Source: Verrucomicrobiota bacterium | Lineage (GTDB): Bacteria; Verrucomicrobiota; Verrucomicrobiia; Limisphaerales; Fontisphaeraceae | NCBI GenBank assembly: GCA_037139415.1 | Contig: JBAXGN010000091.1 | Location: 1-30,116, forward strand | DNA length: 30,116 nucleotides | Reading direction: 5' to 3' | In this document: piece by piece, positions 3,905-29,755 of the stretch | Numbering within the stretch: the stretch's first letter is position 1 | Layout: each line of letters begins with the position of its first letter | Program-made: the position numbers and the translations under genes | The notes under the pieces: generated by a model | Told to the model about the DNA's origin: nothing | Seen by the model: the letters and a program-made list of their open reading frames with translations, nothing else | Database searches by the model: none

Positions 3905-4678
3905 ATGAAACGTAAAGCGGTTATTTTAGTCACGGCGAGCACCCAGAGCAAAGGCTCGGAGTTCGGTGACCTGTCATTGAGCCTTTCCGAATATTATTCG
4001 GAGGCCATCGTGGCCGCCGGTGGGGTGCCGCTGGTGTTGCCTTGCTTGGCCGACGAGACGGCGGTAGTGGCGGCGGTGCGTCAATGCGATGGGATTATGC
4101 TGACGGGTGGGGACGACGTGCAGCCCAAGCTGTATGCGCGCCGGCTGGCGCCCGCGCTGCGCCGCACGGTGGACCCCGTCCATCCCAAGCGGGAAATCGC
4201 TGAGCTATGGGTGATCCGCGAGGCGTTTCAGCAGCGGAAGCCTCTGCTGGCAATCTGTCGCGGCCAGCAACTTTTGAATGTGGCTCTGGGCGGGGACTTG
4301 GTGGTGGATATTTCCCAGCAATTGCCCGGGGCGTTAAATCACCAGCGAAGCGATAAGAAGGATCAATGGGTGCACGACGTGCGGCTCGAACCGGACTCGC
4401 TGTTGGCTAAAATCTCCGGCACCACCCGTTTGGGATCGAACAGCTCGCACCATCAGGCCTGTGGCCGAATCGCCGAGCTGTTGCGTGTGGTGGGCGTCAC
4501 GGGGGATGGCGTGGTTGAGGCCCTGGAATTGAAGCCCGAACACGCGCGGTTGCTACCGTTCATGGTCGCCGTCCAATACCATCCGGAACGCCTGTTTCGG
4601 CGGCATCCCCGGCACCTTGCGTTGTTCCTTTACTTTGTTCGCGTTTGTGCGAAACTAATCGGGAAGGTTAATACATGA
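3905..4678 (+). CDS. class I glutamine amidotransferase-like hydrolase, peptidase C26 / gamma-glutamyl-GABA hydrolase (PuuD) family
   Basis: 257 aa. LAICRGQQLLNVALGG (catalytic Cys), SSHHQA and VQYHPE (catalytic His) motifs typical of C26/PuuD. Stop overlaps the start of the next gene (ATGA at 4675). Confidence 0.75.
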   Translation: MKRKAVILVTASTQSKGSEFGDLSLSLSEYYSEAIVAAGGVPLVLPCLADETAVVAAVRQCDGIMLTGGDDVQPKLYARRLAPALRRTVDPVHPKREIAELWVIREAFQQRKPLLAICRGQQLLNVALGGDLVVDISQQLPGALNHQRSDKKDQWVHDVRLEPDSLLAKISGTTRLGSNSSHHQACGRIAELLRVVGVTGDGVVEALELKPEHARLLPFMVAVQYHPERLFRRHPRHLALFLYFVRVCAKLIGKVNT

Positions 4679-6021
4679 AACATCGTGTTCTCATCGTGGA
4701 CGATTCGCAGGATTTGCGAGGGATGTTGCGTTCCATCCTCGAAATCCAGGGTTATGACATTACCGAGGCGGGCAGCGGCGATGCCATGCGCAAGCAGATG
4801 GAGACGGGGCCGCAACCGGATGTCGTGTTGCTGGACCTGCATTTGCAGGATGGCGACGGCCTGGAGTTGTTGCCTGCCGTCAAACGTGCCTGGCCGCAAA
4901 CGGAAGTCATCATTCTGACCGGCTTCGCCTCGATTGACGCCGCCGTCACCGCCACCAAACTGGGCGCGTACGGCTTTTTGGAAAAGCCGTTCGATTCCAA
5001 GGTGCTGCTGTTGCACATCGAGCGCGCGCTCGAGCGCAAGCAGATGACCGAGGAGACGACCAAATTGCGCCAGGCCATCTCGGCCTTGAGCGGCGGCACC
5101 GCCCCGGTGTTTCAGAGCGCCTCGATGAAGTCCGTGGTGCGCACCGTGGAGAAAGTGGCCGGCAGCGACGTCTCCGTGCTGCTGGTCGGAGAAAGCGGGA
5201 CCGGCAAGGAAATCATTGCCGATCTGATTCACACGCTCAGCCCGCGCGCCAGCGGCCCCTTTGTCAAAGTCAACTGTGCCGCCCTGCCGCGCGAATTGAT
5301 TGAGAGCGAACTCTGCGGCTCGGTCAAGGGCGCGTACACCGGGGCGCATGCGGACCGGCACGGCCTGTTTCGGCAGGCGGAAAAGGGCACCTTGATGCTC
5401 GACGAAATATCGGAAATGCCGGTGGACACCCAGAGCAAATTATTGCGCGTGTTGCAGGACAAGGAAGTGCGGCCCGTGGGCGGCAAAAGCAGTTACACCA
5501 CCGATTGCCGCATCATCGCGGCCACCAATCGTCCGGTGCAACAGGCCATCCGTGATGGCAAATTGCGCGAGGATTTGTTTTACCGCATCAGCACCATCAC
5601 CATTTCCCTGGCGCCATTGCGCGAGCGGCCGGAGGATGTGTGCGCCCTGGCCAACTCATTTTTGCAGCGGTATGCCGCCCAGGCGGACCGCGCCTTCAGC
5701 GGGTTTTCCAAAAGCGCCCTGGAACGGTTGATGCGTTATGAATGGCCCGGCAATGTGCGGCAGTTGCAAAATGAAATACAACGCGCCGTGTTGATCGCGG
5801 AAGGCCCCGTCATCGAGCCGGACGATTTGTCCATCCAAGCCGAAGAAGGCGCGCACAGCACCGGGAATTCCGGGCTGCGCCTGATGGCGGCCATGGAGCG
5901 CAACACCATCGTGCAAGTGTTGAAAGATTGCGACGGGAACAAGGTCGAAGCCGCTAAACGGCTCGGCATCGGACGCCAGACGTTGTACAACAAGCTCAAA
6001 GAGTACGACCTCAAGGCATGA
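4675..6021 (+). CDS. sigma-54-dependent transcriptional activator, NtrC family (REC + AAA+ sigma54-interaction domain + Fis-type HTH)
   Basis: 448 aa. N-terminal receiver (LIVDDS...VVLLDLHLQDGDG). Walker A GESGTGKE. GAFTGA-loop present as GAYTGA. R-finger region. C-terminal HTH RLGIGRQTLYNKLKEY. Confidence 0.9.
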   Translation: MKHRVLIVDDSQDLRGMLRSILEIQGYDITEAGSGDAMRKQMETGPQPDVVLLDLHLQDGDGLELLPAVKRAWPQTEVIILTGFASIDAAVTATKLGAYGFLEKPFDSKVLLLHIERALERKQMTEETTKLRQAISALSGGTAPVFQSASMKSVVRTVEKVAGSDVSVLLVGESGTGKEIIADLIHTLSPRASGPFVKVNCAALPRELIESELCGSVKGAYTGAHADRHGLFRQAEKGTLMLDEISEMPVDTQSKLLRVLQDKEVRPVGGKSSYTTDCRIIAATNRPVQQAIRDGKLREDLFYRISTITISLAPLRERPEDVCALANSFLQRYAAQADRAFSGFSKSALERLMRYEWPGNVRQLQNEIQRAVLIAEGPVIEPDDLSIQAEEGAHSTGNSGLRLMAAMERNTIVQVLKDCDGNKVEAAKRLGIGRQTLYNKLKEYDLKA

Positions 6022-8064: not shown

Positions 8065-11000
8065 TCACGGCTTACCCTCCAGCGCGCCGGCGTCCCGTTT
8101 GCCCGTCGGCGTTTGCCCGCAGAAGTCGCGCCCGGACGGCCCGGTGAATTCCCAGGCATACAACTCTTCGATGGTAGTTTTGGCGTCGGTGAGCGTCCCC
8201 AATGCGATGCGCAGAAATTCCATGGTGCCGGCCAGGCAGCGCCCGGACCGGGTGCCGCCCACCTGCAGGTCACTCGCATTGGCAAGCGACGGGCCGGGAC
8301 CAAAACCAGTGCCCGTGGCATCTGCCCGGCCATCCACGTAGAGTGCCAGCGTGCCCGCTTTGCGGTCCGCTTCGGCGATGAGGTGATGCCAATTCCCATC
8401 ATTGAGCTTAGCGGTGGTGTCCAGGTGCTGCTCTTTGTTGGCGGCTTTCAGGGTGAAACGCGCGCGCCCCTCGGCGGTGATCATCAACCCATAACCGGTG
8501 CTATCGCATTTTTCCGCCAGCACGCCTCCGGTGTGTCCCGGTTCGGTGCGGAAATACGTCTCGATCAGGAAGCTGGATTGCTGCACCTGCGGGCTGGGAA
8601 AACTGTCGCTCGTCTCCGCTCCATCCGCCGCACTGGCCGGGATGGTGTGACGCGTGATTTTGGTGTTGTCATCAAAGTTGCCGGTGGGCGATAGCCACAC
8701 GGTGAGCACATAGGTGCCGAGGTCCGGTTTGGCTTTGGGGGTGAAACGCAGGGAATGCAAACCGGCGGTGGCAGGCTGGGCGTTGCCGCCATAGGCGTTC
8801 ATGCCGCCAAACTTGCCATTGTTCCGTACCCAGTGCAGGTCGGCGCGCAATTTCATTCCCGGCTGATCCTGAAGCAGCGTCAGTTTGGCGGTGAACGTCT
8901 GTTCCGGAACAAGCTGTTCCGGCGCCTCGATTTTGAGCCAGTCGCTGGGCGTATTTTTCGGAGCGGCGACCGCCTTGGTGGAGGTGCGAGTGACCGTGCC
9001 GCCGCTGGACCACACCGCGTATTGGTTGCGCCCGTTGAATTTCAGTGCGCCGGGCGTCCAATCCTCCAGCGGCCCCTCGATATAATCGGCGGCGGTGACG
9101 TTGGTGGCGCGCAGCGGATAAACCGGCTGGCGCAGGTAAGAGGTGCGATCCGTGTAATGCGGTGCGAGGTAAAAGTGCTCGTCGGGAATCAGCGCGGGAT
9201 CATTGCCCACATGATGGAAAGTCCACTCGCCCACTACGGCCGAGAGCGCCCACGGGACAAACACCTTGACGCCGCGATCAGCCGCCGCGGCGGTGGGGCG
9301 GAAGTCATGCTGGGCCGGTGCCCGCAAGAGCGATGCGGCCGCGATGTCGCCCACTTGGCCGATGGAGCCGCGGGCGGCGAGTGCCTTCCGGAAGGGATCC
9401 AAGCCGGGATACCAGCGGCCCGACGGCTCGAATACAGCGAAGCGTTCCGGTACCCCGGAAAACATATTGTTGGCGTAGGCATTGGATTCATGTTCAAAGC
9501 TGGACTTCTGCGCGCCCGCATCGGCGGCGTTCGGATCGGCCATCACGTCTTTGGGATCGGCATGGCGAAAGACCATGTGCCCCATGTCCTGCCAGATATT
9601 CCCGAGATACTTGTTGCGGCCCGAGTCCGGCGCCTGGCGGCGCGAGCCGACCACAAAATTATAGATCGTGTTGTTAAAGATCGAGGTCAGGTAGCCGTAA
9701 ATTTCCTGGAAGGCGGCAGTGTTGCCCAGCGGACCGAGGGGATCGTTGGATTTTCCCCAGGCGATGTTGTTGAAGTAATACTGCTTGTACCCGCCATCCA
9801 TGTAATAGGCGTGGCCAAAGCGGGCGTTGGTGGGTTTGCCGGCATGCAGCAGCAGCCCCCATTTCTTGAAGCCGCCGGGATTCCCGGAAATATTGTCGAA
9901 CACATACGCCGGGCCGCCCTGCCAGGTTTCAATCCCGCCCCAGTCATTGTTGTTGAGCAGGGAATCGGTGACTTTGTTGTGATGAATCAGGATGCGCGAC
10001 AGCGGGCGATCCACTTTGGAGCCGGAACGCTTGCCGCCATAGACGAAGATGCCGGAGCCATACAGGCGATCGAGGATATTCCCGGCCACCTCGGCGGTCT
10101 CCGCGCAATCCACCTCGATGGCGTGTCCCTGGCCATAGCGGGTCGGGCGCAAGCCGATTTGGTAAAGCCGGTTGCGCAGCACCTGGACGTCCAGCAGCCG
10201 GGCAGTGTGGTAGTCCTTGCCCCATTCCCCGCCATCCTGCAACCAGATGGCCCCGTGATCCGTCCACCGGATGTCGTTGTCACGAATCACCACCCGATCC
10301 ACCACACTCGCTTCGCCCGTGCTTTTCAGGCGGACGGGCATGTGGACATGCTCAAAGACACAGTTGGCGATGACGATGTCCGATCCGGAGCCGAGCAGGC
10401 GGATGCAGGCAGGGTCCACATCCCGGTGCTGGGTGGGCGGCGCATCCAGGTTCCAATACGTGTTGACGAAGCGGAAGGTCAGTCCGCTGATCTGCACGTG
10501 CTGCAGGTTGGTGCTCTCGATCAGGCTCAGGTGTCGCGCTGCTTCCACGCGCGCCGTGTTGGGATCCGCATCACCGGGCAGGCGGAGATAAAGACGGCCG
10601 CCCTTGTTTTTGCGGTCGAACCAGAATTCCCCGGCCTCATCGAGGTAGTGCGGCTTGTCTTCCAAGAAGTAACGGGCGTGGCGCGGCATGTGATAGGAGT
10701 CGGCCGTGTCGCCCCACTGGCCGCCAAAGGCCAGCGCGCGCTGTTCCGGGAAAAACGCCTGAACCCGGGTGGGATACGGCGTGCCCATCACCCAGCCATA
10801 TTCCGGCCAGACATAAGCGCCCTGGTAATACGCCGGTGTGTTCGTGAGATGCACGGTGTCCACGCCCAGGTGCAGCGCCCGGCCATTATTCGTGGTCAAC
10901 TGGCCCCATGCATTTTTCGGGTTATCCCAAGCCCACCATTCGCTTTTGATATCATCCGGGTCGGTGACCTTCCAGTTGGGCGTGCGCGCCAGCGTGAGGC

Positions 11001-11538
11001 GTGTGACGGTACCATCCGTGGCCACGCTCCACACGTTGCGCGGGGTAAAATCGAGATCGGCATACCAGACCTTGTCCGCATTCGGAATATCCGGTTGCGT
11101 TGCGCCGCGCTGCCAGCGCGTCACCAATTCTGAGCCGCAAAGGACCGCCGGTCCCTGGCCCCAGTTGGGATCGCTGGTCAGCCGGATGGGGTTGCCCGCC
11201 TCACCGGAATCCCGGGTATTCAGTGTGCCCCGATATGCCACACCGCCCTTGAATACATAAGTGTGAATGCCGGAACCGGCTTGGGCGTTGGCAGTGGCAT
11301 TCGGATCCCATGGATGATGTTTCCACGGCTTAGCCTGGGTGCCGGGATTTGTGTCGTCGCCGGATGCAAAATCAATATGACGCACCGACGCACCCTTTTC
11401 GAATACGAACGGCTGCGGGGTCCATTCGAGATCGCCGGTGGGCACGACTTTGGCGTGTGGCTGTTGCCAGGAATACGTGGCCGCCAGAGTGGTGCCGGCC
11501 AGCCATAATGCCTGCAAAGAAAGCAGCGTTGGTCTCAT
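8065..11538 (-). CDS. large secreted right-handed beta-helix (pectin-lyase-fold) protein with C-terminal LamG/concanavalin A-like lectin domain; probable polysaccharide-active enzyme
   Basis: ~1157 aa from the ATG at 11538. Signal peptide MRPTLLSLQALWLAGTTLAATYSW. Repeated beta-helix-like segments in the middle. C-terminal ...GYGLMITAEGRARFTLKAANKEQHLDTTAKLNDGNWHHLIAEADRKAGTLALYVDG is LamG-like. The ORF-track start at 11625 lies upstream of the signal peptide and is unlikely. Confidence 0.8.
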   Translation of the reverse strand: MRPTLLSLQALWLAGTTLAATYSWQQPHAKVVPTGDLEWTPQPFVFEKGASVRHIDFASGDDTNPGTQAKPWKHHPWDPNATANAQAGSGIHTYVFKGGVAYRGTLNTRDSGEAGNPIRLTSDPNWGQGPAVLCGSELVTRWQRGATQPDIPNADKVWYADLDFTPRNVWSVATDGTVTRLTLARTPNWKVTDPDDIKSEWWAWDNPKNAWGQLTTNNGRALHLGVDTVHLTNTPAYYQGAYVWPEYGWVMGTPYPTRVQAFFPEQRALAFGGQWGDTADSYHMPRHARYFLEDKPHYLDEAGEFWFDRKNKGGRLYLRLPGDADPNTARVEAARHLSLIESTNLQHVQISGLTFRFVNTYWNLDAPPTQHRDVDPACIRLLGSGSDIVIANCVFEHVHMPVRLKSTGEASVVDRVVIRDNDIRWTDHGAIWLQDGGEWGKDYHTARLLDVQVLRNRLYQIGLRPTRYGQGHAIEVDCAETAEVAGNILDRLYGSGIFVYGGKRSGSKVDRPLSRILIHHNKVTDSLLNNNDWGGIETWQGGPAYVFDNISGNPGGFKKWGLLLHAGKPTNARFGHAYYMDGGYKQYYFNNIAWGKSNDPLGPLGNTAAFQEIYGYLTSIFNNTIYNFVVGSRRQAPDSGRNKYLGNIWQDMGHMVFRHADPKDVMADPNAADAGAQKSSFEHESNAYANNMFSGVPERFAVFEPSGRWYPGLDPFRKALAARGSIGQVGDIAAASLLRAPAQHDFRPTAAAADRGVKVFVPWALSAVVGEWTFHHVGNDPALIPDEHFYLAPHYTDRTSYLRQPVYPLRATNVTAADYIEGPLEDWTPGALKFNGRNQYAVWSSGGTVTRTSTKAVAAPKNTPSDWLKIEAPEQLVPEQTFTAKLTLLQDQPGMKLRADLHWVRNNGKFGGMNAYGGNAQPATAGLHSLRFTPKAKPDLGTYVLTVWLSPTGNFDDNTKITRHTIPASAADGAETSDSFPSPQVQQSSFLIETYFRTEPGHTGGVLAEKCDSTGYGLMITAEGRARFTLKAANKEQHLDTTAKLNDGNWHHLIAEADRKAGTLALYVDGRADATGTGFGPGPSLANASDLQVGGTRSGRCLAGTMEFLRIALGTLTDAKTTIEELYAWEFTGPSGRDFCGQTPTGKRDAGALEGKP

Positions 11539-11646
11539 GCGGATAGGTGTATCAGGAATTCCCGTGCGGCCAATCAAAAACGAACCCTCCCCAGAAACTT
11601 CGTAGCCGACGACGTCAGTCGGCACATAAATTGGTAGTTCAAGGGC

Positions 11647-14185
<2,539 letters not shown>

Positions 14186-18621: not shown

Positions 18622-19070
18622 CAATCCCACACATACCGTTCATCGAACACCACGCCGTGGCGTTCCAAAAACGCACGGTATTCCTCCTGGAACGATTTGC
18701 GCCGGTGGTGTTCCGGCTGGCGGGCGATGTAATCGCGGACGGATGGCACGTTGGATTCGCTGACGGCAAACGCCCCGTAACCCGCCTGCCACGCGAAAGA
18801 ACCCAATTCCATTCCCTGCGTTTTAATCCATTTGGAAGAGGTTTTTTTGACCTCTTCCACCGCCTGGCTGACCGAGACCGTGCGGGCAAGTTCAAAAAGG
18901 ATGTGGACATGATCGGCCACGGAGTTGATAAGCACGGGCGCGCAGCCAAGGTTTTGGAGCACGGCCATGTAGGCGTGCAGGGAATCACGAACGGCGTCAG
19001 TGATGAGGCGCTCGCGATGTTTGGTGCTGAAGATGAGATGGACGTGGAGACGCGCGAGGGATTGAGGCAT
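18621..19070 (-). CDS. REP-associated tyrosine transposase (RAYT), IS200/IS605 TnpA-like HUH Y1 transposase
   Basis: 149 aa. HUH motif HVHLIF. Catalytic Tyr region DYIARQ. Size and motifs are typical of RAYT/TnpA_IS200. Flanked on both sides by inverted REP-like repeats. Confidence 0.8.
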   Translation of the reverse strand: MPQSLARLHVHLIFSTKHRERLITDAVRDSLHAYMAVLQNLGCAPVLINSVADHVHILFELARTVSVSQAVEEVKKTSSKWIKTQGMELGSFAWQAGYGAFAVSESNVPSVRDYIARQPEHHRRKSFQEEYRAFLERHGVVFDERYVWD

Positions 19071-19072
19071 GG

Positions 19073-19158
19073 GTTGGGCCGCCCTTTCAGGGCTGGTTTG
19101 GGGTTGCGGTTTGGATTCCCAGGGCGTTGCCCTGGGCTGGGCTTGGGCCGCGCCGTTG
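19073..19158 (-). repeat. REP-like element copy C (5' flank of RAYT gene, inverted relative to copy B)
   Basis: Reverse complement reads ...ggcccaagcc-cagcccagggcaacgccctggg...ccagccctgaaagggcggcccaac, directly abutting the RAYT ATG. Confidence 0.8.
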
Positions 19159-19159
19159 G

Positions 19160-19570
19160 CGCTGTGACGGGATCAATGATGCCGGAGGCCCATTTGCGGA
19201 ACTGCACGGCGCGTTCGGAGTTGACCTTGTAGCCAACGGCGATGATGGCGGCGAGGTTGTAGTGCTGGGTGTCGTAGGATTTGCCGTCAGCGGCAGTTAT
19301 CCGAAAATATTGGATAACTGAATCTGCCTCCAACTCATGGTCAATAAACACCTTTTGCAGGTGGTAGCTGATCGTCCTGACATCTACATCGTAAAGCAGC
19401 CCCATCATCTTCTGGGTGAGCCAGATATTTTCATCGGCGTAAACGGCTTCGACGCCACCCTGGCCGCTGGCCGCCACAAAGGTCAGGTATTCCGCCGCCG
19501 AAGAGCGAACCAGGGAGACGGCGGTGCTCTTTTTGGCGCGACCGTCTGGTGTGGGTTTGCTTTTGCTCAT
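19160..19570 (-). pseudogene. RhuM (virulence_RhuM family) gene, N-terminal ~137 codons intact, 3' part replaced or interrupted by the REP/RAYT element
   Basis: AEYLTFVAASGQGGVEAVYADENIWLTQKMMGLLYDV...DGKSYDTQHYNLAAIIAVGYKVNSERAVQFRKWASGII matches the conserved RhuM core. The ORF-track 368 aa product is a read-through across REP and RAYT-flank sequence. Confidence 0.6.
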
Positions 19571-20244
19571 GGCGCCGCCCTCCGGTTGGCAAGCGAAACT
19601 TCAGCGGCCTCCAGTGCCACGGCGGCCAATTCACCCACGGTCATGGGCGGATAGGTTTTGGCCGGCGTGAAAATCTCGTGTTTGCCAAGGTGGGCAAAGA
19701 GCGAACCCTCGGCACTGTAGGCGGATGATTGAGTGAGGCTATCGAACCGGAAGTCACGCCGCTGGAACCGGCCTTTGCCCAGATAACCCCACTCGGCGAA
19801 AGTGATCGGCAGGTTGCCTTGGGCGCGCATCGTCAATGCGTCGCCGTGGACGAGGTTTTGCGAAAGCACGTAGAAGGCGGCGTGATACAGGTCGTTCGCC
19901 GGAGCGAGGTTCAGATACTCGGCAAAGATTTCGAGCAGGTTGGCGCGGCACTCAGCGATGTTGTCTGGTAACAGTTCGATGCCGTAAATACACATCAAGC
20001 CAAGCAGCGCGTAGTGGCGTCGCTCGAAATCGGACTGCCCGTATTTGAGTTCCACAGCGGCAAGCTTCCGCCGCAGAATCTGCACGAGGAAGTTGCCATC
20101 CCCGCATGCCGACTCCAAGAAGCGTGAGTCAATCCGCTCCGTCTCGCTCTTTACAAGATCAAGCATGGCCTCGACCAGCCAGGCTGGAGTGAAGACCTCC
20201 CCGTGGTCGGCGACCCGTTGTTTGGACTTCACCAGGCTCATAGG
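19567..20244 (-). CDS. methyltransferase-like protein fragment (gamma-class N6A-MTase N-terminal region, catalytic motif IV degenerate); probable inactivated paralog or remnant
   Basis: Start MSLVKSKQ at 20244. Motif X GEVFTPAWL. Motif I FLESACGDGNFL. At the position expected for GNPPY the sequence is GNLPITF. Only ~225 aa with no TRD. Stop overlaps the RhuM start as ATGA, in the same style as the MTase/helicase junction. Confidence 0.5.
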   Translation of the reverse strand, partial: PMSLVKSKQRVADHGEVFTPAWLVEAMLDLVKSETERIDSRFLESACGDGNFLVQILRRKLAAVELKYGQSDFERRHYALLGLMCIYGIELLPDNIAECRANLLEIFAEYLNLAPANDLYHAAFYVLSQNLVHGDALTMRAQGNLPITFAEWGYLGKGRFQRRDFRFDSLTQSSAYSAEGSLFAHLGKHEIFTPAKTYPPMTVGELAAVALEAAEVSLANRRAAP

Positions 20245-20449
20245 GCAAATGAGAAAACTGGGCTGGGCAGAACAAGGCACATAACCGCCGGATATTCGCG
20301 CGGATTTGGCGTTGCTGCACTAACCGATGACCTGCTTGCTGCCATATATCTTCACCGTCCGACCACCCGTGTTAAAGGTGCCTAGCCGGGTTAGTTACTT
20401 CGGTAATGACCTTAACGGGAGAGGGACAAGGCAGCAAGGACAAAGGCGG

Positions 20450-20866
20450 TTACGGTTGGGAACGGGTGGAGAGAAAGTTGGTCGGTGTGACGGCCGCCAC
20501 AGGCGAACCGGCGAAGTCGGCCACGTTGCGGGTGATGATGTAATCGCAATGGCCGGCCTCGGCCAGGCTGGCAACGACGGCATCCTCAAAGTCCGGGAGG
20601 GCCAATTGGCGGGCGCGACGGAACACCGCTTTATCGGCTACGGCGACATCGAAATGAGCCAGCATCCAATCAATGATTTGGTCAGCTTTGGGCTTGGCGG
20701 ACGCTTTGGCCAGGATGTAGTAGAGGGTGGTCAACGCGTGACTGGGGAGCAAGGCTTCGATTTCCCCGAGGCGGGCCAAGCTCAGCACCTCCGCCGAATC
20801 CTGGTAGTAGGGCAGCCGGTTTTGGACGACATCCAGCACGACGTTGAGGTCGAGCAAGACTTTCAT
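20450..20866 (-). CDS. PIN-domain toxin (VapC-like)
   Basis: 138 aa. N-terminal LLDLNVVLDV (first acidic residue), later DFEDAVVASLAEAGHCDYIITRNVADF (PIN acidic residues). Overlaps the upstream small gene by 4 bp. Confidence 0.7.
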   Translation of the reverse strand: MKVLLDLNVVLDVVQNRLPYYQDSAEVLSLARLGEIEALLPSHALTTLYYILAKASAKPKADQIIDWMLAHFDVAVADKAVFRRARQLALPDFEDAVVASLAEAGHCDYIITRNVADFAGSPVAAVTPTNFLSTRSQP

Positions 20867-21099
20867 CGGTGCTTATCGAGCAAATGTTGGCGGTATTCGG
20901 CCTTGGCGTCGAGGTCCGGCGGAACCAGTCCGGTGATGGCTGCCACCTCCGGGTGGATGACGGGACGGACGCGGGTATGCAGACGCCGCACCGTCTGGCC
21001 AAGGGCTTCGGCCACGGTCAGGCCGTGCTGTCGGGCATATCCCTCGAGAAACTCAATGTCCTCGGCGGGCAAGGTCACTGTTAGTGTCGCTGCTGGCAT
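20863..21099 (-). CDS. putative antitoxin of the PIN toxin (small DNA-binding protein)
   Basis: 78 aa ORF immediately upstream of, and translationally coupled to, the PIN gene. Typical type II TA arrangement. No strong motif assigned. Confidence 0.5.
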   Translation of the reverse strand: MPAATLTVTLPAEDIEFLEGYARQHGLTVAEALGQTVRRLHTRVRPVIHPEVAAITGLVPPDLDAKAEYRQHLLDKHR

Positions 21100-21362
21100 A
21101 GCTCAGGCTTTCGTTCTGTCTCGCAAAGCCAAGATAACACGGCGACAGCCGGAAGGAAAGTGCGAAGTTGGGGGAAGAATGGCTCACGCGTGTTTGGTGA
21201 ACCTGGGCGCTGCGTAAATCTGCCCTTTTTTGCTCTGCGCACTCTGCAATGGTGAATCCGGCTATCAGTTTGGAGATGGGTTCGACGATAACCTCCCCTC
21301 CCCTCCGGTTTGCTCCGGAGAGGAGGGTTTTCAAAATCACCACCCAACAGTGGCAATTACGG

Positions 21363-22436
21363 TTACTTGCGAAGTTCCGGCACGGGCACTTGCAGCATCA
21401 CGTTGGCCGACTCTTTCCCGTTGCCCCAATACCAGGACGGGTAATGGCCATCCCATTTTTCCACCCGCGCCTTTTCCACTTCCATGGCCTTGAGTTGCAT
21501 GAGGATGGGGTTGCTGCTGGCTTCCTCAGCCGCCTGGCTGATCTCCCGGATGGCCTGAGCCTCGGCGGTGGCGGCGGTACGGCGGGCATCTGCCAATCCC
21601 ATGGCTTCGCGTCGCGCTTTCTCCGCTTGCGCCTGCGCTTCGAGTTCGATGCGGTCGTTCTCGCGCTTCTGCGCCTCAAATTTCGCTTCGCTGACCACCT
21701 TCAGTTGCTGGGCAATAAAGGTCTGGTCAATGGACTTCTGGATTTCCGGGTTCTCATAAGTCATCCCGCCAAACATTCCTGCCGTGGTGATGGTTACCCC
21801 GCGCGCCTGGAAAAAGTTGGTCACATCCTTTTTCACCGCATCGGCGATCTCCTGTTTTTTCGAGCGCAGGCTGTCCAGTGGATACCGTGCCGCCACTTCC
21901 GCGGCCGCCTGTTGGATGCGTCCCCGCACTTCGTGATCCATCACTTCGGCCAGTGTCCCGCTCGGGTACCAGTACAGGAAGCGCGACGCATCATCCTCGC
22001 TGACGAATGCCGTACACGTGAATCCCATGCTGAAGCCCACGCTGTCGGCACTCTCGATCCAGATGGCCTTGTCCGTGCGCTGTGCCGCCGTGCCGCTGCC
22101 GGTCGTCTGCGTGGTGGTCCATTCCCGCGTGATGGGGGAACGGTTGACCTTCACCAGTCGCACCGTGGCAATCCAGCGGCCATCATGGCTGAGCCGGCCT
22201 TCCTGGGACCACCGGTGCGTGATTTGCACCCGCTTGGCGGCCACCTTGCGTTGCTTGAGGTATTCCTCGGATTCAAACCGCGCCTGTTGCGTGGTGTCGC
22301 CCTCCAGCGGAATCAGAAAGCCCGTGTCGGACGTGTCAATCTCCACATATTCCGGCCGGTCATAAGGCTTCACGCATCCGCCGAATAACGGCAGCACCAG
22401 CACTGTCAACAGGGCGGTGGTTTTGCTGCGGGCCAT
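21363..22436 (-). CDS. SPFH/band-7 (prohibitin-homology) domain lipoprotein
   Basis: Start MARSKTTALLTVLVLPLFGGC (lipoprotein signal with lipobox). SPFH core with FGGMTYENPEIQKSIDQ and a Glu/Ala/Gln/Lys-rich coiled coil (EAQKRENDRIELEAQAQAEKARREA). The ORF track extends in frame to 22742, an alternative start. Confidence 0.75.
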   Translation of the reverse strand: MARSKTTALLTVLVLPLFGGCVKPYDRPEYVEIDTSDTGFLIPLEGDTTQQARFESEEYLKQRKVAAKRVQITHRWSQEGRLSHDGRWIATVRLVKVNRSPITREWTTTQTTGSGTAAQRTDKAIWIESADSVGFSMGFTCTAFVSEDDASRFLYWYPSGTLAEVMDHEVRGRIQQAAAEVAARYPLDSLRSKKQEIADAVKKDVTNFFQARGVTITTAGMFGGMTYENPEIQKSIDQTFIAQQLKVVSEAKFEAQKRENDRIELEAQAQAEKARREAMGLADARRTAATAEAQAIREISQAAEEASSNPILMQLKAMEVEKARVEKWDGHYPSWYWGNGKESANVMLQVPVPELRK

Positions 22437-23133
22437 GTGCGCCCGTGCCCGTTCCCAGGCGTGCCGCAACCATGGCGCAAAGCACAACCAGCCTGTGGTC
22501 AGGATGGCCAGCAGGGCCAGAACGTGCATCCCGTCACGCCATGCCTCGGCCAATCGCATTCCGCCGCTGGCGTCGGCGCGCGGGTTGAATTGCTGCAACG
22601 CCAGCGCCGTGTAAGGCGCGGTTTGCGAGCGGCTGAGCCAGTACATTTCCGCCGTTGAAATCGTGGCGGCTACCAACGCGAATAACAGGATACGTTTCAT
22701 AATCAGACTCCATCTGTGCGTCGTCTCCGGTGCTAGGTACAACGGGGCAGCGGCCTTTATGCCGGGATGAAAGTCCCGTCATCAAGACACCAGCACCCGC
22801 ATGCCGGGGCACACGGACACAACGTGTTGTTACTTACGGGGAGATCAGATGGTGCCACGACCTGTGGCCCTAGAGGATCGCCCTTCCAATTGCCTGCGAG
22901 GTTAGCTGACGGGCTCGGTCCTGGAAGTGACCTGGGAGTTGGTTCACAACTCCGTTCGCCCCAACCACCGTTCCAAGGTGGCATTTGGTTCCCCCGTGTC
23001 GTCCCGCAGGAAGGCGGTCCGACTTCGGCTGCATACTTCAGACATGGCACCTATCGCACATGAGGACAAACTTGTCAATAGGTGCCTCTGGAAGTGACTG
23101 ATAATCAGGGTAATCCTGATAGATAATCCTGCC

Positions 23134-23883
23134 CTATTGCGCCATCAACACCTGTAACATGCGCTGTGGGTTGGACAGGAAATCACGTGTGACCCGGTAA
23201 TGTTCAGTCTCTTCATAAGCAACCCGCTCGATGCCCTTGGTGGAAAAGGCGTAGATGGTGGCGTTCGGGTACGCCATCAAAATTGGCGAATGGGTGGCGA
23301 TGATGAACTGGGATTTTTCCTCGACCAAGTCGTGAATGCGCGTGATCACGGAGAGCTGGCGGCGGGGTGAAAGTGCCGCCTCCGGTTCATCCAGCAGGTA
23401 CAACCCTTCACCGCGAAAACGGTTGACCAGCAGCGCAAGAAAAGATTCCCCGTGCGATTGCTCGTGCAATGAGTGTTTCCCGTAGGCAGGGCCAATCGGC
23501 GGCCCGCCTCCCGGTTCAGCATCCAGCCGCTCAATTTCCGTCGCCACATTGAAAAAACTTTCCGCCCGCAGAAAAAAGCCGTCACGCGGCCGGGTGATGC
23601 CTCGCGAGATGCGCAGGTAGCGATGCAACTCCGAGTGGGAGCTGCGCGTTCCAAATTGGAAATTCTTGGAGCCCCCTTCGGCATTGAACCCGCAGGCCAC
23701 CGCAATGGCCTCCATCAGCGTGGATTTGCCCGACCCATTTTCTCCCACAAAGAACGTGACCGCCGGATGTAGTTCCAGACGATCCAGCGGTCGCACCGCC
23801 GGTAGCGAAAACGGATACCGGTCAAACGACTCCACGGCTTCCCGCTTTAGACAAATTTCGGCGATATATTGCTTTGAAATCAT
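23134..23883 (-). CDS. small ABC/SMC-like AAA ATPase (AAA_21/AAA_15-like ATP-binding protein)
   Basis: 249 aa. Walker A GENGSGKST. Signature/Walker B region LYLLDEPEAALSP. H-loop ATHSP. No partner gene on either side. Confidence 0.7.
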   Translation of the reverse strand: MISKQYIAEICLKREAVESFDRYPFSLPAVRPLDRLELHPAVTFFVGENGSGKSTLMEAIAVACGFNAEGGSKNFQFGTRSSHSELHRYLRISRGITRPRDGFFLRAESFFNVATEIERLDAEPGGGPPIGPAYGKHSLHEQSHGESFLALLVNRFRGEGLYLLDEPEAALSPRRQLSVITRIHDLVEEKSQFIIATHSPILMAYPNATIYAFSTKGIERVAYEETEHYRVTRDFLSNPQRMLQVLMAQ

Positions 23884-24023
23884 GGTAACCCATCATCATT
23901 CTATCGTGCCATCAGTAGCGAAATTAAGCGATTTCCATGAAATTACGAGCCTTTTTTGGGTTTTTATCACAAGTATAACATCCTTATTAACAAACTATTG
24001 CATAAAAGTGTCAAGATTCGCAT

Positions 24024-24052
24024 TTGCATTGCGAAACTTTCGCAGTTATAAT
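24024..24052 (+). promoter_or_regulatory. consensus sigma70-type promoter (TTGCAT-17 bp-TATAAT) with palindromic operator TGCGAAACTTTCGCA in the spacer and outer inverted repeat GATTCGCAT...ATGCGAATC
   Basis: Direct reading. The -10 hexamer ends 7 nt before the ATG at 24060, implying a leaderless or near-leaderless transcript. Confidence 0.45.
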
Positions 24053-24059
24053 GCGAATC

Positions 24060-25286
24060 ATGACACAGTATCGAAAACGTGAAGTTGGCCGATTCCTCGC
24101 GAAGGTGTTGCTGCAATTCCCTGTAGTCGTGATTAGCGGCCTGCGTCAAACGGGAAAAAGCACGTTATTGCAACTGGACCCGATTGCATCTGACAACCGT
24201 AGCTATCGTACACTGGACGATTTGAATACGCTTGAACAGGCGCGCAGCAATCCGCAGCAATTATTGGCAACCGCATCGGCACTGGCTTTGGATGAGGTGC
24301 AACGAGTGCCAGATATATTCCTGCCCGTCAAACGTTCGGTGGATCAAGAGCGCCGTCCCGGACGTTTTATTCTGACCGGTTCGGCCAATTTGCTGTTGAT
24401 GAAACAAGTTGCTGACAGCCTTGCTGGTCGGGCCATTTATGTTCAATTGCATCCGCTAAATCGCCGCGAGCTTTTTGGAAATGTCAGCGAAACACCTGCG
24501 TTGGTTCAGTTTCTTGAGACTGGCCAGTGGCCAAAGGTGGTTATCCCGCCGGTGACTGAGAGTGAAATTCTGCGTGGAGGTTTTCCGGAAATAGCCTTGA
24601 ATCCCGCTTTGGATGCCAATCTGTGGTTTGAAGGTTTTGAAAAAACCTATTTGGAACGGGATGTCCGGGATTTGCGGCGCGTGGAAAACTTATCGAGTTT
24701 CCGGCGTCTCTTGCGGTTATCGGCCTTGCGCATTGGCGGGATACTGAATGTCAGTAACCTGGGACGTGATGCTCACTTGCCGGAATCCACCACCCGCAGC
24801 CATCTGGATTTGCTGGAGGCTCTGATGGTAATTCAGCGGCTACCCCCGTTTTTTGGTAATCGCACTTCGCGACTGGTCAAGGCACCTAAATTATATTTTG
24901 CGGATTCAGGTCTGGCTGCATTTTTAGCCGGGATAACCGATCTCCATGACCATTCAGCCGAACCATTGCGGGGCGCACTCCTGGAAAATTACCTATTGCA
25001 GCAGCTACGGGCCACTTTGGATCCTTGGCTGAACGGCGTGCAGTTTCACTATTGGAATGAGCAGGGGCGTTACGAGGTGGACTTGGTGCTTGAACATAAG
25101 CGCCGAGTGCTGGCCATTGAAGTCAAGGCGGCCAGCCGTCTTTCCCCAAGTGATTGGCGATGTCTGGAAATGTTTCAGTCCATCACTCCCAACTGCTGTG
25201 GTGGCATTGTCGCTTATCAGGGAACGGAAATAGTGCCGCTGGGGAATAAGCTATGGGCGGTACCAATCCACGCTTTTCTGGCCTGA
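24060..25286 (+). CDS. AAA_14 / DUF4143 family ATPase
   Basis: Walker A GLRQTGKSTLL near the N-terminus. Walker B region LALDEVQRVPD. C-terminal DUF4143-like region. Start at ATG 24060 (or 24051). The ORF-track TTG at 24024 lies inside the promoter and is unlikely. Confidence 0.75.
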   Translation: MTQYRKREVGRFLAKVLLQFPVVVISGLRQTGKSTLLQLDPIASDNRSYRTLDDLNTLEQARSNPQQLLATASALALDEVQRVPDIFLPVKRSVDQERRPGRFILTGSANLLLMKQVADSLAGRAIYVQLHPLNRRELFGNVSETPALVQFLETGQWPKVVIPPVTESEILRGGFPEIALNPALDANLWFEGFEKTYLERDVRDLRRVENLSSFRRLLRLSALRIGGILNVSNLGRDAHLPESTTRSHLDLLEALMVIQRLPPFFGNRTSRLVKAPKLYFADSGLAAFLAGITDLHDHSAEPLRGALLENYLLQQLRATLDPWLNGVQFHYWNEQGRYEVDLVLEHKRRVLAIEVKAASRLSPSDWRCLEMFQSITPNCCGGIVAYQGTEIVPLGNKLWAVPIHAFLA

Positions 25287-25341
25287 ACTGCCCCACCATT
25301 TCTCATTGTCAAATCCGCAGCTCACGTCCACTCTGGCGTCC

Positions 25342-27273: not shown

Positions 27274-27623
27274 AAGAGACCGACTGGGATGACGTTTATA
27301 TGAAGCCTAAAAAAATGGTCGTATAATGCCAATAAAATTAGTTTTGTCTGTTTGCCACAGTATCAGTGTTTTTACATTGCTGGGAATCACCCGCTGGGTG
27401 GGAAGGAGGGGCATCGGGATTATTTTAGGTTCGCTATGCACAATAATTGGCCGGTTTTCTGTTTAGCCACCCAAATCTCCGCCCTAATAAAATTCATACT
27501 TGAATCCCCATGGAGGTGGCGTAGGGTAACCCCAAAAAACAGTGAGCCAAAAGCAATGCTCCTTTACCGTAGTGTTAGCGATAGCATGAAACGTTCCAGA
27601 AATTAATAGTTTTATTAGTTTGA

Positions 27624-29018
27624 ATGAAGATCGATCGCCGTATTCGGGATACAGTCCATGGTTTTGTGGCGCTCACCGCCGAGGAATCTGCTCTACTTGA
27701 TACTCCCGCACTTCAGCGGCTGCGTCGTGTTCGCCAGTTAGCTATGGCTTCGCTGGTGTATCCGGGTGCCGTTCATACACGGTTTGACCACACCTTGGGT
27801 GTGTTGCATATTGCTAATATGATGTGCGACCGGTTACAGATTGAAGAGCGCTATTCTCCAACCATTCGCCTCGCTGCCCTGCTTCATGATGTTGGGCATG
27901 GCCCTTTCTCCCATGTCTCCGAATCAGTTCTCAAGATAGTGGCTAGAACCAATCTCGCTAAGTTGGCGAAACAGCAGGATAAAATTCATGAATTGATTAC
28001 TCGTGACATCATTCTTACGCATCAAGGTTTTGATAAAACGCTCACTAAAGGCGAACGCCAAAATATCACCGACCTTCTTAATGATGGACTCAAGGATTCA
28101 GTTCACAAAGCCATCATTTCCGGGCCAGTGGATGCGGATAAGCAAGATTATTTATTGCGCGATAGCCATTATTGCGGCGTGCAATACGGTCGCTTTGATA
28201 TAGCCCATCTTCATAACGTGCTTACGCCAGTCGAAGACGTGGACCAAAAGGTTTTGATGGTCGAGCCATCTGGCATTCATGTGATTGAGCAGTTTGTCCT
28301 CGCCAAGTATTATCTTACTACCCAGGTTTATCGTCATAAGGTTCGCCTGATAACGGACCAGATGCTTACGCGTGCGCTGGTTCTAGGAGTGGTCAAAGAT
28401 CATTTACCGTTCTTGGAAAAGTTGTACGTGTACAAATCCACTCCGGATTATATCGAGAACTATTTGACTTGGGACGATTCACGCCTCACCCAAGAGTTGT
28501 TGAAAGAGGAATACTCAAAAACTAATGCAGGGCAATTTTTTAGGCGTTTGGTCCACCGTCAACTGTATAAGCGCGTCTGCCAAGTTTCCTTGAATGATAT
28601 CTCGGGTAACGCTCAGATTGCCTCAGCCGAGGAATTCCTGAAGAAACGGGGAGAGATGGAAAAGGGGATGGCCGTTTGGTTGAAAGAAAAAATGGGTATT
28701 AAACTCAGCGCTGATCATGTTATTGTCCATCATTATTCCATTGAATCTGCTAGGAAACAATCAAGAAATTCCGAACGCTCTATTCCCATCCATACCTTGC
28801 CTTCCCCGACGATCTTTGAAGATGCTTCAAGTCTCTTTCACTCGATTGATGAAAAAGGGAAGGAAGAATTTGTAGAGTGCTACGCACCATTGGACGGCTT
28901 GTCACGTATAGTGCGCAGTGATATGGAAAACAATGCCAAAAAGTTCCTGGTGCAGCTTTTGGCTGATATTTTCCCGAATAATCACCAAAAATCTAAGAAT
29001 GGAGGAAAATCATCATGA
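27624..29018 (+). CDS. HD-domain dNTP triphosphohydrolase-like protein (dGTPase/SAMHD1 family)
   Basis: 464 aa. IRDTVHGFVALTAEESALLDTPALQRLRRVRQL...HTRFDHTLGV, LLHDVGHGPFSH, DADKQDYLLRDSHYCGVQYGRFD reproduce the three signature blocks of dGTPase/SAMHD1 HD hydrolases. Embedded in a ~47% GC island. Translationally coupled to the next gene. Confidence 0.8.
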   Translation: MKIDRRIRDTVHGFVALTAEESALLDTPALQRLRRVRQLAMASLVYPGAVHTRFDHTLGVLHIANMMCDRLQIEERYSPTIRLAALLHDVGHGPFSHVSESVLKIVARTNLAKLAKQQDKIHELITRDIILTHQGFDKTLTKGERQNITDLLNDGLKDSVHKAIISGPVDADKQDYLLRDSHYCGVQYGRFDIAHLHNVLTPVEDVDQKVLMVEPSGIHVIEQFVLAKYYLTTQVYRHKVRLITDQMLTRALVLGVVKDHLPFLEKLYVYKSTPDYIENYLTWDDSRLTQELLKEEYSKTNAGQFFRRLVHRQLYKRVCQVSLNDISGNAQIASAEEFLKKRGEMEKGMAVWLKEKMGIKLSADHVIVHHYSIESARKQSRNSERSIPIHTLPSPTIFEDASSLFHSIDEKGKEEFVECYAPLDGLSRIVRSDMENNAKKFLVQLLADIFPNNHQKSKNGGKSS

Positions 29019-29584
29019 AAGTTCGTAGTGTTATTTTATTGTCGTTGGATGCCTTTGGCGGAATCGTCTCTGGAAAAACCATGCTCCAGAAACGACTCTT
29101 CTTCATGGCTCAATATTTGAAACAGGAATGGGGATTTAACGCCCACTATTATGGCCCTTATTCCAATCTCATTGCATCAGAGCTGGTTACGCTTAAAGTT
29201 CAGGGCCTTGTTGCTGAATCATGCCTTAGGTACGGTGGAGCCGACAGCAGTGGTTTTGAGAAAAAGCGTTGTGATTACACGCTTACTGAAACAGGGAAGA
29301 ATGCTGTTCAGTGGCTAAAAAAGGAATTCCCGAATGATTCTAATAAGTTACGCCAAATTGCCTTACGGATTGTAGAGGCAGGCGATTTGGGCTATGAGGA
29401 TCTCAGTATTGCAGCTAAAGCGTATTTTATTCTGAAACAATCTGAGTCTGACATGCTTTCAACGGCTGAAATTGCTGACAAGGCGCGCAAATTCTCTTGG
29501 CAGGTGACAGAACCGCAGATTTCAAAAGCCTGTGGTTACCTGGTCTCGTTGGGGCTAGTCAAAGCTCCGAGAAAAGCCGCATGA
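29015..29584 (+). CDS. Panacea (DUF4065/SocA-like) domain protein, putative antitoxin/partner of the HD hydrolase
   Basis: 189 aa. GKTMLQKRLFFMAQYL...HYYGPYS matches the Panacea core (KLQKLLYfaq...w.yGPv). Start overlaps the HD gene stop (ATGA at 29015). Same low GC. Confidence 0.55.
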   Translation: MKVRSVILLSLDAFGGIVSGKTMLQKRLFFMAQYLKQEWGFNAHYYGPYSNLIASELVTLKVQGLVAESCLRYGGADSSGFEKKRCDYTLTETGKNAVQWLKKEFPNDSNKLRQIALRIVEAGDLGYEDLSIAAKAYFILKQSESDMLSTAEIADKARKFSWQVTEPQISKACGYLVSLGLVKAPRKAA

Positions 29585-29755
29585 CATGCTCGCATTTCAT
29601 GGAGGCTGTATCCCTTATCTTTTCATGAAAGACGTTTCCACCTTTTTGGCAAGGGCTCCACACTTTTGGTGGCCGAAGCCACTTGGTCGCTTGGTCGACA
29701 ATAAATATTCCGCGCAAACCGCGTGATGCAAATTCTCGTCGAACTATGAAATGAT

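Follow-up and report, generated by a model that had tools for sequence, protein, structure and literature searches.

A low-GC operon pairing a SAMHD1-type HD phosphohydrolase with a homologue of the DarG C-terminal domain is a candidate toxin–antitoxin-type defence module

The complete 30,116-bp contig of a Verrucomicrobiota metagenome-assembled genome (MAG), hereafter the window, carries close to its right-hand end a two-gene operon, at 27274–29584, in which an HD-domain phosphohydrolase of the SAMHD1/EF1143 type (gene 1) is followed by a small YwgA-family protein (gene 2). We read this locus, with moderate confidence, as a mobile toxin–antitoxin (TA)-type operon that would act in defence against phages or other mobile genetic elements (MGEs) by depleting nucleotides. 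The evidence comes from the catalytic residues of gene 1, the resemblance of gene 2 to the toxin-binding domain of DarG, the constancy of the pairing across many phyla and the base composition and neighbours of the pair. The locus is laid out as follows.

27274–27623, no strand: non-coding, AT-rich leader (guanine–cytosine (GC) content 41.7%), 350 bp from the sulfatase stop codon to the HD start codon
27624–29018, plus strand: gene 1, 464 amino acids (aa), ATG start, SAMHD1/EF1143-type HD-domain phosphohydrolase (from the open reading frame (ORF), Pfam and PDB homology)
29001–29006, plus strand: GGAGGA Shine–Dalgarno (SD) sequence of gene 2, within the 3′ end of gene 1 and 8 nt before the ATG
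29015–29584, plus strand: gene 2, 189 aa, ATG start, YwgA-family protein (from the ORF, homology and an AlphaFold 2 model)

The two genes share a 4-nt ATGA overlap at 29015–29018, the feature from which an initial annotation of this DNA, made from the sequence by itself, had proposed translational coupling. Its description of a low-GC, horizontally acquired segment preceded by an AT-rich non-coding stretch also agrees with what we find: the gene pair has a GC content of 45.5% versus 58.2% for positions 1–27273, the four 500-bp windows over the pair (GC 0.428–0.482) are the lowest of the entire contig, and the stretch before gene 1 is the 350-bp leader, which is presumably a promoter or regulatory region and forms the left border of the island.

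Gene 1 matches the Pfam families HD (PF01966; 43.2 bits, cut-off 22, E 5.5e-11) and HD_assoc_2 (PF19276; 45.7 bits, cut-off 23.1, E 7.1e-12), a combination present in 120 of the 120 homologues listed, and it contains the three hallmark blocks that had been recognized in it at the outset (LQRLRRVRQL...HTRFDH, LLHDVGHGPFSH and DADKQDYLLRDS). Its best sequence matches in the PDB are 2hek (5e-42), 2q14 (7.7e-31), the Enterococcus faecalis deoxynucleoside triphosphate (dNTP) hydrolase EF1143 (2o6i, 8.5e-30) and human and other SAMHD1 proteins (about 5e-26). Across 58 paired orthologues, H51, R53, H56, H88, D89, H92, H97, E100, H122, E123, D170, D172, K173, D175, Y176, R179 and D180 are each at least 97% conserved. 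This set covers the metal ligands H..HD..D (H56, H88, D89 and D172), the HE dyad H122–E123, the arginine R53 of the HxRFxH motif and the DxDKxDYLxRD block, and the catalytic residues align with those of 2hek, 2q14 and SAMHD1. Because conservation of the catalytic residues is nearly complete in the 58 orthologues, an active phosphohydrolase is expected; homology suggests dNTPs as its substrate, and gene 1 is probably an active dNTPase.

The label 'SAMHD1/dGTPase-like', given to gene 1 in the initial annotation, stands in its first half, with the active site intact, and falls in its second. A Dgt-type identity was considered and rejected: the antiphage dGTPase model NF041026 of NCBIfam scores 18.6 bits (cut-off 400), TIGR01353 scores 29.6 (cut-off 152), the PADLOC dGTPase match is confined to residues 24–108, and the matches span only about 60–115 residues around the HD motif. 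Since the Dgt models align at the HD motif only and far below their cut-offs, gene 1 is of the SAMHD1/EF1143 type and not a 'dGTPase'. Nor does it belong to a housekeeping dgt clade always found without a partner, as gene 1 lies outside the Dgt type and is paired.

Gene 2 had been assigned to the Panacea (DUF4065) proteins on the strength of a KLQK-type motif followed by YGP. The motif is present (KTMLQKRLFF...HYYGPYS) and belongs to the features that are invariant in the gene 2 family, namely GKT.LQK..F, HYYGPYS, GFE, SIAAKA and W162. The family assignment did not survive. A Pfam scan of gene 2 at E ≤ 10 gives no family, and PF13274 (DUF4065) has no match at E ≤ 10 in gene 2, in 58 homologues (alignment A1) or in 8 further members, with the proviso that HMMER filters may conceal matches with E > 0.1; the precomputed Pfam assignment is empty ('-') for all 165 gene 2 homologues listed. 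Because PanA is defined as a match to the DUF4065 hidden Markov model (HMM) at the gathering cut-off (Kurata et al. 2022, PMC8832971), gene 2 falls outside Panacea.

The matches that gene 2 does have lead to DarG, the antitoxin of the DarTG system. The C-terminal half of the PADLOC DarG model matches gene 2 at E 1e-4 and the orthologue at locus L096 at E 1.4e-7. Searches of NCBIfam and PHROGs yielded nothing beyond DarG (E 0.015) and phrog_14939, an unannotated family matched by 40 of 59 members over their N-terminal 70 residues. A profile search of the PDB returns a single match, 7yk3_B, which is the DarG C-terminal domain in the Mycobacterium tuberculosis DarTG complex. The AlphaFold 2 model of gene 2 (pLDDT 92.4, pTM 0.88) has a winged-helix N-terminal part and a mainly helical second domain, and the DarG C-terminal domain is its only full-length structural match in Foldseek (E 1.8e-5, TM 0.66–0.69). 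Furthermore, hhalign aligns the gene 2 family with the genuine DarG of locus L066 at 88% probability (E 3e-6). From the profile, structure and hhalign matches together, gene 2 is a stand-alone homologue of the toxin-binding, that is DarT-binding, C-terminal domain of DarG and belongs to the YwgA family; the source annotation (JGI, COG-derived) names many of its homologues 'uncharacterized protein YwgA'. We regard it as a putative cognate partner that would regulate or neutralise the HD enzyme.

By Pfam scan and model, gene 2 has neither a Macro domain nor a nucleotidyltransferase (NTase) domain. A partial match to PADLOC PDC-M19A (E 7.9e-7) aligns residues 4–107 with positions 5–103 of a 294-position model, and Foldseek against viral structures gives partial winged-helix matches only. 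DNA mimicry, judged by charge and isoelectric point, was rejected as acidity is not consistent across the family. Two 30-nt stretches, 27898–27927 in gene 1 and 29151–29180 in gene 2, are 73% identical; the encoded peptides, HGPFSHVSES of the HD enzyme and YGPYSNLIAS of gene 2, each fall within an invariant motif, and the likeness may be due to chance.

The pairing itself is highly conserved. Scanning 185,579 species genomes with a profile gave 273 relatives of gene 2, of which the best 80 loci were analysed. An intact HD gene lies immediately upstream on the same strand in 58 of these 80; it is interrupted by the contig end in 8, reduced to frameshifted or truncated remnants in 8 and missing in 3 although space is present, and the remaining 3 have no space upstream. 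Counted over evaluable loci, the intact HD gene is directly upstream in 58 of 69, with remnants in 8 more. The distance between the HD and partner genes ranges from −40 to +30 nt in all but one of the 58 intact loci, and 19 of them share the identical 4-nt overlap. The pairing also holds from the other side: all 13 metagenome loci that were seeded from HD and leave room downstream carry the partner gene, as do both HD homologues looked up (15 of 15 in total). Mirror-tree comparison of HD and partner distances gives r = 0.846 (n = 58), where the maximum of 2000 permutations is 0.156 (p < 5e-4). The partner family amounts to 289, 736 and 2,672 clusters at 50% identity for E ≤ 1e-30, 1e-10 and 1e-3, respectively, and at least 7,942 proteins overall carry HD + HD_assoc_2; because the HD + HD_assoc_2 family is far larger than the partner family, only one HD clade is paired in this way. 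The expectation of the initial annotation that the pair would be conserved as a unit is thus confirmed, in many phyla and often among defence or TA genes, and HD enzyme and partner very probably form an obligate, mobile two-gene module.

The exception to the spacing rule, locus L069 (4612–6567), is a single 651-aa ORF joining HD and YwgA. We rejected it as Rosetta-stone evidence in view of its junction, tttATGAac, and its nanopore origin; it is likely a 1-nt indel artefact of a nanopore-derived MAG rather than a natural fusion. Two loci hold additional copies. At L002, the HD–partner pair is followed, after about 0.4 kb containing a 128-aa unannotated ORF, by a second full-length YwgA-family gene (4415–5065, E 2.7e-57). 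Desulfofundulus australicus DSM 11792 has two modules in tandem at L038, the second (9874–11809) being 3.3 kb downstream of the first; in the second, the HD + HD_assoc_2 gene consists of a 324-aa ORF plus a 124-aa ORF, possibly by frameshift, and the partner is a divergent YwgA-like protein with E 7.5e-10 to the family HMM and no Pfam match.

Relatives of gene 2 are rare and widely scattered. The 273 matches come from more than 10 phyla, with hosts in Verrucomicrobiota, Acidobacteriota, Planctomycetota, Chloroflexota, Bacillota, Nitrospirota, Thermodesulfobacteriota, Armatimonadota, Omnitrophota, Zixibacteria, Sumerlaeota and Elusimicrobiota. In 48 of 56 loci the pair falls short of its flanks in GC content by more than 3 points; an excess of more than 3 points never occurs, and the mean difference is −7.7 points. 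Neighbours are not conserved, none being common to more than 7 of the 80 loci. The gene pair is a low-GC cassette that has been horizontally acquired. A phage-like contig of 81.7 kb from IMG/VR, with ThyX and DUF3310 genes, carries DUF7680 and an orphan YwgA-like gene without an HD gene (L095, 5449–6919). The orphan protein is 30% identical to gene 2, and a DUF1156/HmaB methylase is represented on the same contig by an N-terminal fragment of 120 aa that is 80% identical to its counterpart in L096. L095 looks like a captured piece of an Hma–HD–YwgA island, and its orphan gene could be an antitoxin-like anti-defence decoy.

The neighbours of the pair are frequently genes of defence and TA systems. 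Of the Pfam families in 132 immediate neighbours, DEAD, ResIII, Helicase_C and SNF2 are the commonest; TIR, nSTAND1, DUF1156 and NOV_C occur twice each, and PADLOC recognizes DrmD/HmaA (4), HmaB (2) and DarG (2). In L090/L036 and L096 the pair sits inside an Hma (helicase–methylase–ATPase) operon with the order HmaC(DUF499)–DUF7680–HD–partner–HmaB(DUF1156)–HmaA(SNF2), with GmrSD and HEPN genes in addition in L090 and an integrase in L096; the DUF7680 gene between HmaC and HD in L090 and L096 is small. The order differs in L016 and L044, which read HmaA–HD–partner–HmaB(–HmaC) and whose Hma proteins are about 25% identical to those of L090/L036/L096. Elsewhere the pair adjoins DrmD, DarG, TIR, nSTAND, AbiE, CapP-like, BrxD or PIN TA genes. 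It is flanked by Gp49/HTH and AbiEi/AbiEii in L083, and L097 has CapP-like and BrxD-like proteins, Phd–PIN, SNF2 and a ThiF/ubiquitin-like gene set. At L066 (590–6393) the order is SNF2 helicase–HD–partner–DarG, the DarG being a 353-aa protein with a macrodomain and the C-terminal domain; DarT was not recognized nearby, and the downstream 239-aa ORF has no PDB relative.

Insertion of the pair within Hma operons in two gene orders, beside DrmD-like SNF2 helicases, and the predominance of helicase domains among the 132 immediate neighbours would also suit a different role, in which the HD enzyme targets not free dNTPs but, for instance, RNA, the ends of nucleic acids or a nucleotide used in signalling, mainly as an accessory effector or regulator cassette of Hma/DISARM-like systems, and gene 2 is a docking adaptor. 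SAMHD1 is also described as binding nucleic acids (PMC7854603), which would fit such a role. However, neither Hma nor SNF2 genes adjoin the pair in most loci (about 90%), where it stands alone, and the catalytic residues of the HD enzyme, the HE dyad and R53 among them, are those of a dNTP triphosphohydrolase. We consider an accessory role of this kind quite improbable.

Several features are of the sort expected if the HD enzyme is toxic and gene 2 its antidote. The HD gene is disrupted next to an intact partner in 8 of 69 evaluable loci. Among the four isolate genomes, it is disrupted in Syntrophomonas zehnderi and in Desulfofundulus australicus, where the HD gene of the first module of L038 is frameshifted, undetectable in S. 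wolfei (L028) and intact in Moorella mulderi. In S. zehnderi and S. wolfei (L088/L019 and L028), nothing or only short ORFs remain of the HD catalytic domain, and the intact partner lies among cell-envelope genes. Of 57 loci, 40 have an SD-like motif ahead of the partner gene and 9 have one ahead of the HD gene; gene 1 of the window has none. The stronger SD of the partner gene is consistent with a partner made in excess.

In the mechanism that we propose, the HD enzyme would hydrolyse dNTPs to nucleosides and triphosphate and would be harmful when unrestrained. Because the C-terminal domain of DarG binds DarT (7yk3), gene 2 would by analogy bind and silence the dNTPase, or set its trigger, and its winged helices possibly repress the operon too. 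Infection or plasmid entry would cause the partner to be lost, displaced or modified and so release the dNTPase; dNTPs would then fall, stalling replication in the invader, and in the cell as well, and starving phage DNA synthesis. Direct restraint of the HD enzyme by gene 2 is, on this analogy, about evenly balanced in our judgement, and a biological role in antiphage or anti-MGE defence is a tentative proposal to which we give slightly less than an even chance. More speculative is a wider picture, possible and no more than that in our estimate, in which DarG-C-terminal-like inhibition acts directly on a SAMHD1-clade dNTPase in an abortive-infection or TA system spread over more than 10 phyla, serves as a plug-in effector of Hma systems and is countered by phage YwgA-like decoys, as L095 hints.

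A number of observations weigh against a TA-type defence operon. Gene 2 served to find the loci, so that intact partners are favoured among them, and assembly errors may account for the HD 'pseudogenes' in MAGs. At 464 aa, gene 1 would be a large 'toxin' for a classical type II TA system. Defence genes are absent from 4 of 10 neighbourhoods inspected (L086, L115, L116 and L117), and the defence association, in raw counts uncorrected for background, is therefore real but not universal. A tblastn search with gene 2 against cultured phage and plasmid collections gave no match, and only 5 matches occur in 2.9 million viral contigs. The N-terminal half of gene 2 resembles DNA-binding winged helices of the PadR/MarR type, so the partner could be only a transcription factor. 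Finally, the name YwgA comes from Bacillus subtilis, in which we take ywfO, encoding an HD enzyme, and ywgA to be neighbouring core genes, which hints that related HD/YwgA pairs can be housekeeping.

The last two points each correspond to an explanation of their own. If gene 2 were only a winged-helix autoregulator of the operon, the HD enzyme would be controlled by nucleotides, as are SAMHD1 and CloA, the dNTPase of the Clover system. However, the partner gene follows the enzyme gene, is translationally coupled to it and co-evolves tightly with it, and its invariant residues (GKTxLQK..F, HYYGPYS, GFE, SIAAKA and W162) form a signature in common with the DarG C-terminal domain. The two roles are moreover not exclusive, as many antitoxins do both, and we find pure autoregulation unlikely.

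If instead the pair served housekeeping, the HD protein would sanitise or balance pools of dNTPs or modified NTPs, which has been proposed for enzymes of the YwfO/EF1143 type, with the YwgA-like protein as its dedicated allosteric or stabilising subunit and no role in conflict. EF1143/TT1383/SAMHD1-type enzymes regulate dNTP pools, the COG-derived name points to the ywfO–ywgA neighbours of B. subtilis, and several neighbourhoods are purely metabolic. YwfO itself has been discussed as a promiscuous pyrophosphohydrolase acting on modified nucleotides (PMC4993169). Against this reading, the pair occurs patchily and in few species (273 of 185,579), is systematically AT-richer than its host, lacks conserved synteny, is repeatedly inserted within Hma operons and beside TA or defence genes, and often has a disrupted HD gene. 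A housekeeping role thus seems rather unlikely to us, and a TA-type operon under the control of gene 2 remains the reading that we prefer.

Compared with DarTG, the pair has the effector gene first, as in the darT–darG operon, in which the toxin gene comes first. Gene 2 and the DarG C-terminal domain (7yk3) have the signature QK..YF...YGPYS in common, and in L066 the gene that follows the pair encodes a bona fide DarG. Unlike DarG, gene 2 has no macrodomain, and the enzyme is an HD phosphohydrolase rather than a DarT ADP-ribosyltransferase; YwgA also has an extra β-hairpin (residues 66–90) that is absent from DarG, and identity is marginal, at 18–20%. With SAMHD1, EF1143 and TT1383, gene 1 shares HD + HD_assoc_2 and the conserved R, H..HD..D and HE residues, whereas it lacks the SAM domain and those enzymes are regulated by nucleotides, with no dedicated protein partner. 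The single-gene antiphage dGTPase of the Dgt family, reportedly described by Tal and colleagues in 2022, has the same proposed outcome, dNTP depletion by an HD-superfamily triphosphohydrolase. It belongs to another HD clade, in which only the HD motif region aligns, and Dgt-type enzymes are stand-alone, with no partner gene.

A second analogy for the proposed restraint is Clover, an antiphage system in which the CloA dNTPase is highly toxic without CloB, which restrains it (PMC12265719). Clover too is a two-gene operon, and its HD/HE dNTPase adjoins the gene that restrains it, with toxicity and an antiphage role shown for Clover (PMC12265719). They differ in how restraint would be achieved: in Clover it is a p3diT signal from the CloB NTase (PMC12265719), whereas gene 2 has no enzymatic domain and resembles a direct protein-binding antitoxin domain.

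The pair also resembles the PanAT systems, being two tightly spaced genes within the ≤100-nt distance, conserved across species, with a small, promiscuous antitoxin-like partner that has a similar N-terminal KLQK..YF...GP motif. In contrast to PanA, gene 2 and 66 relatives have no Pfam DUF4065 match. Cluster T34 of Dataset S1 in Kurata et al. 2022 lists an 'HD domain-containing protein' (CDD YdhJ) with PanA as predicted toxin and antitoxin, marked 'notest' (PMC8832971). Its spacings are −4, 0 and −17 nt in toxin–antitoxin order, in species including Ammonifex, Desulfofundulus thermocisternus and Caldicellulosiruptor (PMC8832971). T34 therefore has the same kind of putative toxin and the same gene order as our pair. 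The T34 species are absent among the homologues of the D. australicus partner in a search with that protein, and neither partner of the D. australicus tandem modules matches DUF4065 in current Pfam. T34 may be a parallel family, or it may be the gene 2 family as recognized by an older DUF4065 model only.

PADLOC v2 does not hold the pair as a system and gives only the partial PDC-M19A and HD-motif dGTPase matches. In the literature searched, there is no description of the pair apart from the T34 rows and, as an analogue, Clover. The initial claim that such a pairing had not been described was thus overstated, as T34 lists HD with PanA (PMC8832971) and Clover is a restrained dNTPase (PMC12265719). 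A SAMHD1-type effector with a DarG-C-terminal-like control element is new in combination and uncharacterised, and its control logic is anticipated because Clover and the single-gene dGTPases are functional precedents.

Within 10 kb of the pair, the window holds further genes of this kind: PDC-S01, an AriA/PtuA-like ATPase, a PIN_3/DUF6364 pair and an IS200-type transposase. Two of them are placed as follows.

24024–25286; PADLOC PDC-S01 candidate; E 1e-117
23134–23883; short AAA_23/AAA_21 ATPase, mad3/AriA/PtuA-like; minus strand

The region 19000–25300 holds defence, TA and MGE genes, with the Y1 (IS200-type) transposase at its left, and contains a second patch of lower GC (about 50–52% at 23.5–25 kb). 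A cyclic di-AMP riboswitch (RF00379) at 22876–23040 on the minus strand matches the full-length Rfam model at 69.1 bits versus a gathering cut-off of 38 and lies upstream of a minus-strand ORF (21363–22742) whose only match is a weak Band_7. In the leader of the operon, a promoter scan finds a single weak sigma-70-like match (27464–27493), not above shuffle expectation, an Rfam search gives no family, and support for coding was not found for an 84-aa ORF at 27352–27606. Around the island, promoter and terminator scans and Rfam give nothing above chance, direct and inverted repeats are likewise none above chance, and att-like flanking repeats were not found. The right-hand context is missing because the contig stops 530 bp past gene 2.

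If our reading is correct, SAMHD1-style dNTP depletion under the control of a protein inhibitor exists in bacteria. A stoichiometric protein antitoxin would be a third way of controlling antiviral dNTP depletion, next to nucleotide allostery, as in SAMHD1 and Dgt, and a synthesised inhibitory nucleotide, as in Clover. The SAMHD1 clade itself, and not the Dgt clade, would then be tied to prokaryotic immunity. Current defence annotators would miss the family because it is absent from the PADLOC v2 models. The repeated insertion into Hma operons offers a handle on the Hma effector step, which to our knowledge is still poorly understood. The Pfam-unannotated YwgA family would gain a function, and the fold shared by the DarG C-terminal domain and YwgA, perhaps together with Panacea, would be a general, reusable scaffold for neutralising toxins.

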